From Escherichia phage ECO340P1, in the sequence record OP172791: a stretch of 64,000 nt of DNA; one strand, written 5' to 3'. The notes under the pieces were generated by a model. The model saw nothing but the letters and a program-made list of their open reading frames with translations. It searched no databases and had not been told where the DNA came from. Shown here piece by piece: positions 60,106-60,191 of the stretch. A program made the position numbers and the translations under genes. Position 1 is the first letter of the stretch. Each line of letters begins with the position of its first letter.

Positions 60106-60191
60106 TGGCGATGAGTATAGGATTTGAACCTATATCGTTCTTTCGAACACGGATTAACAGTCCGCCGCTTAAACCATTCAGCCAACTCATC
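60106..60191 (-). tRNA. tRNA-Asn (anticodon GTT) with an atypical long variable arm
   Basis: Anticodon arm GCGGA-CTGTTAA-TCCGT, discriminator G, T-arm ATAGG-TTCAAAT-CCTAT, plus a 15-nt variable arm GTTC-GAAA-GAAC-GAT; 86 nt with CCA. Confidence 0.65.

Follow-up and report, generated by a model that had tools for sequence, protein, structure and literature searches.

An asparagine tRNA gene with a class II-type extra arm in Escherichia phage ECO340P1 and other phages

Background

In textbooks, the long variable arm is restricted to the tRNAs for serine, leucine, bacterial tyrosine and selenocysteine, where it is a recognition element. AsnRS, a class II enzyme, is usually taken to approach its tRNA from the side of the variable loop. 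Nematode nev-tRNAs (Hamashima et al. 2012) keep the leucine identity set, are charged only with leucine, and mistranslate (PMC3333845). The identity set of AsnRS consists of the three anticodon bases and G73, and the U1-A72 pair typical of bacterial tRNA-Asn is a determinant for the amidotransferase route, not for AsnRS (PMC9976931). Serine identity does not depend on the anticodon and resides mainly in the variable arm, G73, and acceptor pairs; G2-C71 is absolutely conserved in E. coli tRNA-Ser, and leucine or serine acceptance can be switched by one-nucleotide changes in arm register (Giegé review, PMC9976931).

Phage tRNAs are also known from counter-defence. The AriB nuclease of PARIS cleaves host tRNA-Asn(GUU), has Thr(UGU) as another target, and reads the D loop and other distal tRNA elements. 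The tRNA-Asn of phage T5 rescues from PARIS, escaping through anticodon-stem changes, and the authors of the AriB work proposed that overexpressed viral tRNAs might inhibit the nuclease by competition (PMC12409363).

Here, a tRNA-Asn(GTT) gene of Escherichia phage ECO340P1, a phAPEC8-like E. coli myovirus, was analyzed in a stretch of 64,000 nucleotides (record OP172791; hereafter, the window). No earlier description of a long-arm phage tRNA-Asn, and no experiment on one, was found in the literature covered (full-text searches and papers on phage-tRNA evasion, Sf14, retron-Eco7, Schlafen, and tRNA arrays; subscription-only and older T5/BF23 papers lay outside).

Materials and methods

The gene and its neighbours were called with ARAGORN and compared with the Rfam family RF00005, and flanking ORFs were searched for Pfam domains. 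Folding was done on the single sequence (MFE) and, unguided, on 13 related sequences (RNAalifold). For comparison, 87 distinct long tRNA-Asn, 92 canonical tRNA-Asn, 108 tRNA-Ser, and 88 tRNA-Leu were sampled. Host tRNA-Asn genes were taken by coordinates from E. coli K-12.

Results

Gene and overall fold

The phage tRNA-Asn(GTT) is 86 nt long and lies on the minus strand at 60106-60191, with an encoded CCA and G73. ARAGORN called it with exactly these bounds as tRNA-Asn (anticodon gtt, 86 nt, minus strand), neither a standard 76-nt tRNA nor another isotype. The strand was not given in the first-pass annotation. Aligned along the whole of RF00005 (model positions 1-71), it scored 62.0 bits (gathering threshold 29; E = 2.3e-12), and 12 nt of its variable region were inserted relative to the model. 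Read on the minus strand, the sequence is GAUGAGU-UG-GCUGAAUGGUUUAAGC-G-GCGGA-CUGUUAA-UCCGU-GUUCGAAAGAACGAU-AUAGG-UUCAAAU-CCUAU-ACUCAUC-G-CCA, and its parts are as follows.

60106..60191, minus strand: whole tRNA-Asn(GTT), 86 nt including CCA (ARAGORN; RF00005, 62 bits; annotation of relatives)
60185..60191, minus strand: 5' strand of the acceptor stem, GAUGAGU, positions 1-7, with G1-C72 and A2-U71 (7/7 pairs with 60110-60116)
60167..60182, minus strand: D arm, positions 10-25, 3-bp stem GCU/AGC with a G13.A22 mismatch, class II-like (RF00005 alignment, covariation)
60149..60165, minus strand: anticodon arm GCGGA-CUGUUAA-UCCGU, positions 27-43, anticodon GUU at 60156-60158 (comparison with K-12 tRNA-Asn)
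60137..60148, minus strand: extra (variable) arm, 4-bp stem GUUC/GAAC with a GAAA tetraloop, alignment columns 44-55 (MFE, covariation, RNAalifold)
60134..60136, minus strand: unpaired GAU between extra arm and T stem, giving a register of 0 on the 5' side and 3 on the 3' side (geometry comparison)
60117..60133, minus strand: T arm AUAGG-UUCAAAU-CCUAU (RF00005 alignment, covariation)
60106..60116, minus strand: 3' strand of the acceptor stem, ACUCAUC (60110-60116), G73 (60109), and CCA (60106-60108) (sequence)
60416..60501, minus strand: neighbouring tRNA-Ser(GCT), 86 nt, G1-C72, G2-C71, arm A-GUCG-GAAA-CGGC-GU, register 1/2 (ARAGORN, RF00005)
59941..60015, minus strand: neighbouring tRNA-Thr(TGT), 75 nt, of normal length, the isotype of the host AriB target Thr(UGU) (ARAGORN; PMC12409363)

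All the general features of a tRNA in RF00005 were present (7-bp acceptor stem; D, anticodon, and T arms; T loop). The MFE fold was a cloverleaf plus the extra hairpin GUUC/GAAA/GAAC, and RNAalifold returned the same structure, extra arm included. The first-pass annotation had described the 15-nt variable region as a hairpin GUUC-GAAA-GAAC followed by GAU, and the two folds and the RF00005 insertion bear this out; its reading of the anticodon arm GCGGA-CUGUUAA-UCCGU and the G discriminator as those of tRNA-Asn also agrees with the sequence and the ARAGORN call. The energy of the MFE fold was only modestly better than that of shuffled sequences (z = -1.71). The hairpin-bearing 15-nt variable region and G13.A22 place the molecule outside class I; canonical tRNA-Asn in the sample had variable regions of 4-6 nt. 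The architecture is class II, with an isotype (GUU, Asn) outside the class II set of Ser, Leu, Tyr, and Sec. The gene is thus a genuine tRNA gene with a class II-type extra arm.

Ordinary tRNA genes make up the array around it (ARAGORN), and in Mt1B1_P17 and many relatives it already bears the label tRNA-Asn. Some records label tRNA-like genes adjoining it as pseudogenes. Pfam detected no tRNA-metabolism domain in the flanking ORFs, the only match being the large terminase. Next to their tRNA regions, T5 and Stubb have a small annotated 'tRNA amidotransferase'; a homologue of it was looked for in the window and not found.

Selection on the extra arm

Among the 13 relatives, covariation was present in every helix. 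The acceptor stem covaried at six of its seven pairs, and all four extra-arm pairs carried compensatory double substitutions with 52/52 cells paired, so the extra arm is more than a chance pairing. Over the whole structure, 99.4% of cells were paired; shuffling lowered this to 76%, and sliding the partners by one column to 32-40%. Within the genus of the phage, substitutions in the tRNA-Asn fell at unpaired positions only. The wider family behaved in the same way: the variable regions of the 87 distinct long tRNA-Asn had a mean best stem of 3.55 bp (2.78 bp when shuffled; z = 10.4, with 0/1000 shuffles as strong), and the 76 hairpins with at least 3 bp comprised 44 distinct stems. The extra arm is maintained by selection.

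Distribution

Long-arm tRNA-Asn was found in Stephanstirmvirinae, Vequintavirinae, most T5-like phages, T4-like Klebsiella phages, and dozens of uncultured viral contigs, and is present in at least four phage families or subfamilies. The sequence of the phage tRNA-Asn itself is conserved in hundreds of phage genomes, and in T5-like phages the long-arm allele was carried by 291 records and the normal-length one by 134; Bas26, Bas27, and Bas29 are T5-like BASEL phages with the long allele. Among unselected viral Asn genes, sampled only by the anticodon arm GGA-CUGUUAA-UCC, 15/110 were long, and 12/56 within arrays (about 14-21%). By comparison, 185,579 species genomes of bacteria and archaea yielded only 17, of which 11 lay within dense tRNA arrays. 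The enrichment in phages over cells is an order-of-magnitude statement, since the viral share was counted over genes with that one anticodon arm and the cellular number over species genomes. The long-arm design is shared by mobile tRNA arrays and phages of many lineages; cells hardly ever have it.

Asparagine and serine identity elements

Positions 26-43 of the phage tRNA-Asn, including the anticodon G34-U35-U36 (60156-60158, loop CUGUUAA), were identical to those of the four E. coli K-12 tRNA-Asn genes (asnT/U/V/W), a comparison that the first-pass annotation had proposed and that accords with its reading. A BLAST search of the phage tRNA against 5,426 E. coli genomes gave one chance-level match only, the 18 nt of shared anticodon arm being too short for such a search. 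G73 was present in 85/87 long tRNA-Asn. U1-A72 occurred in 56/87 long and 69/92 canonical tRNA-Asn; the phage tRNA-Asn has G1-C72 instead. Most likely, the phage tRNA-Asn accepts asparagine through the host AsnRS and reads AAC and AAU. If, as is usually supposed, AsnRS approaches the tRNA from its variable-loop side, a long arm might hinder charging.

G73 is common to the Asn and Ser identities and hence does not discriminate between them. Besides G73, the phage tRNA-Asn has the G1-C72 of a serine substrate, without G2-C71 or a Ser-type arm register. Position 2-71 is A-U, while G2-C71 was found in 101/108 tRNA-Ser. The extra arm has no unpaired nucleotide on the 5' side and three on the 3' side. 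This geometry (0,3) was the commonest one of long tRNA-Asn (31/87; 20/30 in the G1 lineage); tRNA-Ser mostly had (1,1) (58/108), and the phage's own tRNA-Ser(GCU) has 1/2. Stems were 4-7 bp long in tRNA-Ser and 3-4 bp in long tRNA-Asn. Mischarging by SerRS appears unlikely, because G2-C71 is absent and the arm register differs from that of tRNA-Ser. The suggestion of the first-pass annotation that the tRNA may be mis- or dual-charged by SerRS is thus disfavoured by the comparison, given A2-U71, the register 0/3, and the prevalence of G73 and U1-A72 among long tRNA-Asn. In the T5-like and T4-like long tRNA-Asn, G1-C72, G2-C71, and G73 are all present, and therefore only the arm geometry would block serylation there.

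Scaffold and origin

The bodies closest to that of the phage tRNA-Asn were tRNA-Ser (similarity 0.75 and 0.73), and the closest one on its own genome was the tRNA-Ser(GCU) at 60416-60501 (0.60). In the G1 lineage of long tRNA-Asn, Ser was among the five nearest neighbours 31 times (10 expected), whereas in the U1-A72 lineage canonical Asn was among the nearest neighbours 106 times (15.7 expected). Position 13-22 was G.A in 43/87 long tRNA-Asn and Watson-Crick in only 16/87, against 72/92 Watson-Crick in canonical tRNA-Asn; the G13.A22 mismatch was also seen in 59/88 tRNA-Leu and 27/108 tRNA-Ser. The same arm geometry occurs in two lineages, a larger Asn-bodied one with U1-A72 and a Ser-bodied one with G1-C72, which would imply convergence or gain of the arm on an Asn tRNA. 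A general origin from tRNA-Tyr was considered for its Tyr-like register and the single change from GUA to GUU, and was rejected: the nearest bodies were Tyr in only 4/87 cases, and all tRNA-Tyr have A73, while long tRNA-Asn have G73.

Discussion

On balance, the gene is probably a functional phage tRNA that reads AAC/AAU and is charged by AsnRS, a chimera of an Asn anticodon arm and G73 on a Ser-like class II scaffold with a selected arm. The anticodon arm is base for base that of E. coli tRNA-Asn, with G73 completing the AsnRS identity set, and the rest is the Ser-like scaffold with its 3-bp D stem, G13.A22, and 4-bp arm with a GNRA loop. Serine identity would have been disabled in two ways, by replacement of G2-C71 with A2-U71 and by a shift of the arm by one base relative to tRNA-Ser (0/3), which should make it point elsewhere. 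From the identity elements observed to be present and absent, together with the observed structure, covariation, and distribution, we infer charging by AsnRS and rejection by SerRS.

The phage tRNA-Asn is an isoacceptor of the host tRNA-Asn(GUU) cleaved by AriB, and a nuclease-evading role of the long arm, an idea already raised in the first-pass annotation, is plausible, as it would fit both the enrichment in phages and the targeting of host tRNA-Asn by AriB. Escape-type changes such as those in the anticodon stem-loop of T5 tRNA-Asn are absent from the phage tRNA-Asn, the surroundings of the AriB cut site (U36-A-A-U-C40|C41) being host-identical; cleavage would therefore be expected if AriB needs only that site. 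The arm may alter the shape of the tRNA elbow and core. Enzymes of the host or of rivals that target tRNAs and read beyond the anticodon loop, AriB for example, would then no longer act on the long-arm tRNA, with its decoding and charging unaffected by the arm. Such evasion by shape is tentatively put forward as the likeliest reason for the arm. The published rescue from PARIS by T5 tRNA-Asn was rejected as evidence for the long-arm type: the T5 sequence shows a class I tRNA of 78 nt whose anticodon stem (GCAUC/GUUGA) has diverged, and the tRNA-Asn of Bas34 (SelmaRatti), a phage that the AriB paper also treats, is likewise class I and of normal length (77 nt). In a broader and rather unlikely version, the GNRA-capped short arm would be a portable phage 'disguise module' grafted on class I tRNAs (mostly Asn, also Thr, Cys, Trp, Glu, and Lys), sparing synthetase recognition and decoding and blocking shape-reading defence enzymes such as AriB-like Toprim nucleases. 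If true, phage tRNAs would have a second route of counter-defence, through their architecture and in addition to mutation of the anticodon loop, and the contrast between the frequent class II-style Asn tRNAs of phages and their near absence from cells would be accounted for.

The main rival to evasion by shape, itself doubtful, is a neutral relic: a Ser-like class II gene of the phage tRNA array would have been given an Asn anticodon arm, and the functionless extra arm would persist, with compensatory changes, only since the class II core misfolds without it. The Ser-like bodies of the phage tRNA-Asn and its G1-C72 lineage and the class II-type D stem with G13.A22 agree with such a history. 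Ser(GCU) and Asn(GUU) are one anticodon base apart and share G73, and the tRNA-Asn and the adjoining tRNA-Ser(GCU) are both 86 nt long with arms of 4 bp and GAAA. If anticodon switching were common in phage arrays, long arms would be expected on other isotypes there, and they do occur sporadically on tRNAs for Cys, Thr, Trp, Glu, and Lys. Compensatory change shows that folding of the hairpin is required; a specific function does not follow from it. However, the larger U1-A72 lineage has canonical Asn bodies and yet the same arm and geometry, and the arm register is systematically unlike that of Ser, which points to remodelling beyond mere inheritance. Canonical and long Asn genes also coexist on several viral contigs, and the long allele is the majority form in T5-like phages and is kept across several phage families.

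The remaining alternatives question what the tRNA does, or that it is one. Reading of the long arm and G73 by SerRS, with Asn codons decoded as Ser in the manner of nev-tRNAs, is improbable. The anticodon-independence of serine identity and its reliance on variable arm, G73, and acceptor pairs (PMC9976931), the Ser-like body with G1-C72 and G73, and the precedent of nev-tRNAs, which bear non-cognate anticodons and are charged by the synthetase of their class II parent (PMC3333845), would allow it. Against it, A2-U71 replaces G2-C71, the arm, at 4 bp, is as short as those of Ser get and lies in a register (0/3) other than that of Ser (1/1) or of the phage's own Ser (1/2), and one-nucleotide register shifts are known to switch Leu/Ser acceptance. 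All AsnRS determinants are present and conserved across the long-Asn family; moreover, about 6% of the codons of this phage are Asn codons, so efficient Asn-to-Ser misreading would harm every protein. Still less probable is a non-translational role, with the RNA mainly a decoy or competitive inhibitor of a tRNA-binding defence protein or nuclease, or another regulatory RNA. Competition of viral tRNAs with AriB was raised by the AriB authors, and a host-identical anticodon arm would make good bait, but the complete, covarying acceptor stem, encoded CCA, G73, canonical T loop, and four standard arms are conserved as in working tRNAs, the gene lies in an array of ordinary tRNA genes, and a decoy does not need an intact acceptor end. 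The chance of a pseudogene or software artefact is negligible. The modest z of the single-sequence fold and the pseudogene labels on adjoining tRNA-like genes could be cited for it; ARAGORN and Rfam agree independently, the latter with a high score, and conservation in hundreds of genomes adds to the covariation in every helix, the restriction of genus-level changes to unpaired positions, and the RNAalifold structure, by which this reading is effectively refuted.

The long-arm tRNA-Asn places a body plan reserved in textbooks for other isotypes on the Asn isotype, in hundreds of sequenced phages. Laboratory phage groups are affected, namely the T5-like BASEL phages, the phi92 and phAPEC8 groups, and the Klebsiella T4-like phages, and the plain tRNA-Asn label given by annotation pipelines hides the anomaly. 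It raises the questions of how AsnRS, a class II synthetase, accommodates a long arm, what keeps SerRS off a Ser-like scaffold with G73, and whether body architecture, beyond anticodon-loop sequence, is a battleground between phage tRNAs and tRNA-cleaving immunity.

Comparison with known systems

With the canonical tRNA-Asn of E. coli (asnT/U/V/W), the phage tRNA-Asn shares the anticodon stem-loop (26-43), G73, the codons, and presumably the synthetase. The E. coli tRNA is of class I, with 76 nt, a 5-nt variable loop, a 4-bp D stem, Watson-Crick 13-22, and U1-A72, whereas that of the phage has 86 nt, a 15-nt variable region with a hairpin, a 3-bp D stem, G13.A22, and G1-C72/A2-U71. The extra stem-loop in the variable region, the 3-bp D stem, and the overall length are those of class II tRNA-Ser/Leu/Tyr, and arms capped by GNRA are frequent in the tRNA-Ser and tRNA-Leu of phages, too. 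It differs from class II tRNAs in its Asn anticodon arm, the lack of G2-C71, and the Tyr-like register 0/3, and from tRNA-Tyr/Leu, which have A73, in its G73.

The nematode nev-tRNAs likewise combine a long arm with the anticodon of a class I amino acid (Gly/Ile) and are likely of class II descent (PMC3333845). Unlike in nev-tRNAs, the identity set of the phage tRNA-Asn matches its anticodon and the Ser marks are partly lost (A2-U71, register), which would predict faithful decoding. The phage design also has a much wider distribution. Finally, the phage tRNA-Asn resembles the phage tRNAs of counter-defence (T5 Lys/Thr/Asn against AriB; phage tRNA-Tyr against retron Eco7) as an array-borne isoacceptor of a host tRNA cleaved by a nuclease. 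The characterised escape tRNAs are of class I and carry their substitutions within or beside the anticodon stem-loop, whereas the phage tRNA-Asn has a host-identical anticodon arm and an altered body.

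The tRNA-Asn gene and its genomic context

Ten minus-strand tRNA genes were called by ARAGORN in the window, within 59060-60982. The gene under study and three further features of the region are as follows.

60106-60191, minus strand: tRNA-Asn (anticodon gtt), 86 nt, called by ARAGORN
60201-60285, minus strand: Tyr-type tRNA-like gene (anticodon GTA, A73, encoded CCA), Rfam tRNA model 39 bits, no ARAGORN call
60510-60596, minus strand: Ser-type tRNA-like gene (anticodon TGA), matched by the tRNA-Sec model alone at 37.4 bits, below the gathering score of 47, no ARAGORN call
58919-58973, minus strand: weak match to the RyhB sRNA model (29.4 bits, gathering score 55, E 0.011)

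The first-pass annotation had described a tRNA-Asn with a long variable arm at 60106-60191, and ARAGORN returned an 86-nt tRNA-Asn with exactly these ends. The Rfam general tRNA model matched the gene end to end (62.0 bits, gathering score 29), with a 12-nt insertion in the variable region. On its own strand, the 5' half reads GAUGAGU UG GCUGAAUGGUUUAAGC G GCGGA CUGUUAA UCCGU and is followed by GUUCGAAAGAACGAU AUAGG UUCAAAU CCUAU ACUCAUC G CCA, the CCA end being gene-encoded. The minimum-energy fold is a cloverleaf with an additional hairpin, GUUC-GAAA-GAAC. By ARAGORN, Rfam, sequence and fold, the Asn anticodon arm, the G discriminator and the 15-nt variable region of that annotation are all real, and positions 26-43 are identical to those of all four E. 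coli K-12 tRNA-Asn genes.

The tRNA cluster shares 98-99% identity with those of E. coli myoviruses of the genus Phapecoctavirus (phAPEC8-like, Stephanstirmvirinae; ~150 kb), e.g. Mt1B1_P17, in whose records the gene is labelled tRNA-Asn with no remark on its architecture. The flanking ORFs encode small hypothetical proteins and the large terminase, and no tRNA-metabolism genes were found in these flanks. The Tyr-type gene and the Asn gene downstream of it are 9 nt apart, and their acceptor stems (GGUGAGU and GAUGAGU, respectively) are identical at 6/7 positions. In related records, the Tyr-type and Ser-type genes appear as tRNA-Tyr, as pseudo-tRNA, or without annotation. The RyhB-like match, directly downstream of the cluster, is probably due to chance.

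Selection on the extra arm

Covariation was assessed in an ungapped alignment of 13 related long tRNA-Asn genes (those with a hairpin-forming long variable region) from Phapecoctavirus, phi92-like, T5-like and T4-like phages, uncultured viral contigs, and one bacterial MAG. Standard pairs occupied 99.4% of cells, compared with 76% after shuffling and 32-40% when partners were slid by one column. The extra arm was the best-supported helix, with 4/4 pairs changed on both sides and 52/52 cells paired; its stems included GUUC/GAAC, GAAC/GUUC, GAGA/UCUC, AUCC/GGAU, GUCA/UGAC, GUCG/CGAC, and GAGC/GCUC. RNAalifold, supplied with no structure, returned the identical cloverleaf-plus-arm, and substitutions within the genus spared all paired positions, falling in the D loop, the T loop, and the first base of the spacer that follows the arm. 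Among 87 distinct long tRNA-Asn genes, 44 different arm stems were present, and the variable-region hairpins were stronger than in 1000 shuffles (z = 10.4). These patterns indicate that the extra arm is under selection and not accidental.

Arm geometry and identity elements

For the counts of identity elements, all tRNAs in the fetched loci were parsed. The variable region of the 87 long Asn genes was 11-19 nt (mode 15) with a stem of 3-4 bp, usually closed by a tetraloop (60/87, 47 of them GNRA). The register of the arm, given as unpaired bases 5'/3' of the stem, was mostly 0/3 (31), 1/4 (15) or 1/3 (9). Bacterial-type tRNA-Tyr in the same contigs had a matching register, unlike tRNA-Ser (1/1 in 58/108, stems of 4-7 bp) and tRNA-Leu (0/1). 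G73 was present in 85/87 long and 89/92 canonical (class I) Asn genes, whereas all Tyr and Leu tRNAs had A73. U1-A72 was found in 56/87 long Asn, 69/92 canonical Asn, no Ser and 1/63 Tyr genes, and G2-C71 in only 33/87 long Asn genes compared with 101/108 Ser genes. At 13-22, long Asn had G.A in 43/87 and a Watson-Crick pair in 16/87, the latter being found in 72/92 canonical Asn. Judged from these counts, the acceptor end of long Asn is Asn-like and the D stem class II-like. The window tRNA has G1-C72, A2-U71, G73, G13.A22, and arm register 0/3.

Asn identity resides in the three anticodon bases and G73 (Giege review). In E. coli, recognition as Ser does not depend on the anticodon; the variable arm and the tertiary shape decide it, G1-C72 and G2-C71 are absolutely conserved, and G73 contributes; register shifts of a single nucleotide can switch Leu/Ser acceptance (Giege review). 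By these criteria, the window tRNA carries a complete Asn set together with a Ser set that is impaired.

Origin of the tRNA body

Bodies were compared after removal of the anticodon arm and the extra arm. Taken together, long Asn genes lay nearest to canonical Asn, which supplied the nearest body for 26/87 of them although it made up ~6% of the pool. The bodies fell into two lineages. The U1-A72 lineage (56 genes) is Asn-bodied, with 106 canonical Asn among the five nearest neighbours against 15.7 expected. The G1-C72 lineage (30 genes), to which the window tRNA belongs, is Ser-bodied (31 Ser against 10 expected), and canonical Asn was not enriched near it (8 against 8.4). The bodies closest to the window tRNA were Ser tRNAs (0.75 and 0.73). 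On its own genome, the closest was the neighbouring Ser(GCU), also of 86 nt with a 4-bp GAAA-capped arm, which differs from it in having G2-C71 and register 1/2. The window tRNA is best described as a chimera of a Ser-like class II scaffold and a host-type Asn anticodon arm, with the extra arm shifted by one base.

Distribution in phages and cells

Long tRNA-Asn genes (82-86 nt) were found in phi92 (Justusliebigvirus), Epseptimavirus, Novosibvirus, and Tequintavirus AKFV33, as well as in a T4-like Klebsiella phage (166 kb), Vequintavirinae, and the BASEL phages Bas26, Bas27, and Bas29. T5-like phages were divided between the long allele (291 records) and the T5-type 78-nt allele (134 records). 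The long allele is 83-86 nt with a host-like anticodon arm; the T5-type allele is class I with a mismatched anticodon stem and U32. Both occupy one position, between tRNA-Cys and tRNA-Asp (L304 9953-10030 in T5; L005 2479-2561 in AKFV33). In T5, the allele is overlapped by an inserted ORF, T5.069, labelled in relatives as a GIY-YIG or homing nuclease.

In IMG/VR, a scan for the Asn anticodon arm with a long gap behind it yielded at least ~75 further distinct long genes (79-91 nt) on very diverse contigs, including those of jumbo phages. With a gap range admitting both forms, 15/110 genes were long (14%), and 12/56 within tRNA arrays (21%); several viral contigs held both forms. Run to completion on one genome each for 185,579 species of bacteria and archaea, the long-gap scan gave 68 matches, only 17 of them real long tRNA-Asn, and 11/17 lay in dense arrays (7-36 tRNA genes per 8 kb) of the kind associated with mobile elements. 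All these viral and cellular figures cover genes with the arm GGA-CUGUUAA-UCC, and among such genes the long-arm design, as judged from the scans, clearly belongs to phages and mobile arrays rather than to cellular genomes.

Chromosomal arrays with 13-36 tRNA genes per 8 kb carried long tRNA-Asn of 84-90 nt in Micromonospora/Verrucosispora (L136, L138, L147, L189), Agromyces (L188), and Methyloprofundus (L193). These arrays likely derive from a mobile element or phage, and only L188 and L193 had a canonical tRNA-Asn beside the long one.

Proposed function of the arm

The window tRNA is a structurally intact, selected tRNA with the Asn identity set, and the probability that its gene is a pseudogene is negligible. 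It is probably charged by the host AsnRS and would supply AAC/AAU decoding; Asn codons make up ~60 per 1000 in the window ORFs. The first-pass annotation had proposed mis- or dual charging by SerRS. With a full Asn set set against an impaired Ser set, this is improbable: A2-U71 and the arm register are predicted to keep SerRS off.

For the purpose of the arm, evasion by shape is tentatively preferred. The PARIS nuclease AriB has host tRNA-Asn(GUU) among its targets; it cuts between positions 40 and 41 and also needs D-loop bases and further elements outside the anticodon arm (PMC12409363). A class II core joined to a host-identical anticodon arm may present a different body while charging, modification, and decoding are kept. 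As a caution, the AriB cut-site sequence is kept exactly in the window tRNA, and the tRNA-Asn in the experiments of the AriB study was that of T5 (PMC12409363), which by its sequence is class I, 78 nt long and altered in the anticodon stem; the Bas34 gene is short too. The main rival holds that the arm has no function and was inherited from a Ser-like ancestor, being retained only because a class II core needs an arm to fold. This explanation is viable and hardly less probable than evasion by shape, and the Ser-like body of the window tRNA fits it; the occurrence of one arm geometry on two differently bodied lineages argues for constraint on that geometry. A decoy role for the tRNA is very unlikely.

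Comparison with known tRNAs

The gene itself is not new, being already annotated in hundreds of records. No description of the long-arm architecture, its conservation, or its phage restriction was found in the freely readable literature (supplements of the AriB paper excepted). Long-arm tRNA-Asn is a clear and widespread exception to the textbook rule, with a function of the arm that is hypothetical only.

Scattered cases of the short GNRA-capped arm followed by a 3-4-nt 3' spacer were also seen on Cys, Thr(UGU), Trp, Glu, and Lys(UUU) tRNAs of phage and mobile arrays, each tRNA keeping the discriminator of its own isotype. Asn is therefore the commonest instance of a wider phage phenomenon. 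Such arms (~3 bp and a GNRA loop) were counted on Cys(GCA) 8/57, Thr(TGT) 10/99, Trp(CCA) 4/57, and Glu 4/78 in viral contigs (L011-L130) and bacterial arrays (L134 and L153). T5-like contigs L023 and L109 had an 87-nt Thr(TGT) of this form, and two bacterial arrays a Lys(TTT) of 88-90 nt. The insertion in tRNA-Ile(TAT) of 91-96 nt (viral L027, L030, L032, L034, L035, L052, L066, L092; bacterial L153) is larger and different, with a variable region of 21-26 nt and often a CAGAUUA/CAGAUAA-like motif. In Salmonella phage SalP219 (L313 4-90), an annotated 87-nt tRNA-Lys(TTT) directly upstream of the long tRNA-Asn has its extra bases in the D-arm region, not the variable region, and no ARAGORN call. 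For the annotated tRNA-Lys(TTT) of phi92 (L002 2326-2401), ARAGORN gave tRNA-??? and an anticodon of two bases, 'tt', suggestive of an irregular anticodon loop; the gene belongs to a run Lys-Tyr-Asn-Thr that contains all three AriB target isoacceptors.

The window tRNA is an Asn isoacceptor by anticodon and discriminator, but lacks the class I architecture that defines every described tRNA-Asn; with class II tRNAs it shares the architecture but not the isotype. It shares its context with anti-defence phage tRNAs but not their defining anticodon-arm substitutions. Conceptually, the closest precedent comes from nematodes, whose nev-tRNAs are of class II, have Gly or Ile anticodons, retain leucine identity and mistranslate, whereas the identity elements of the window tRNA predict the opposite.
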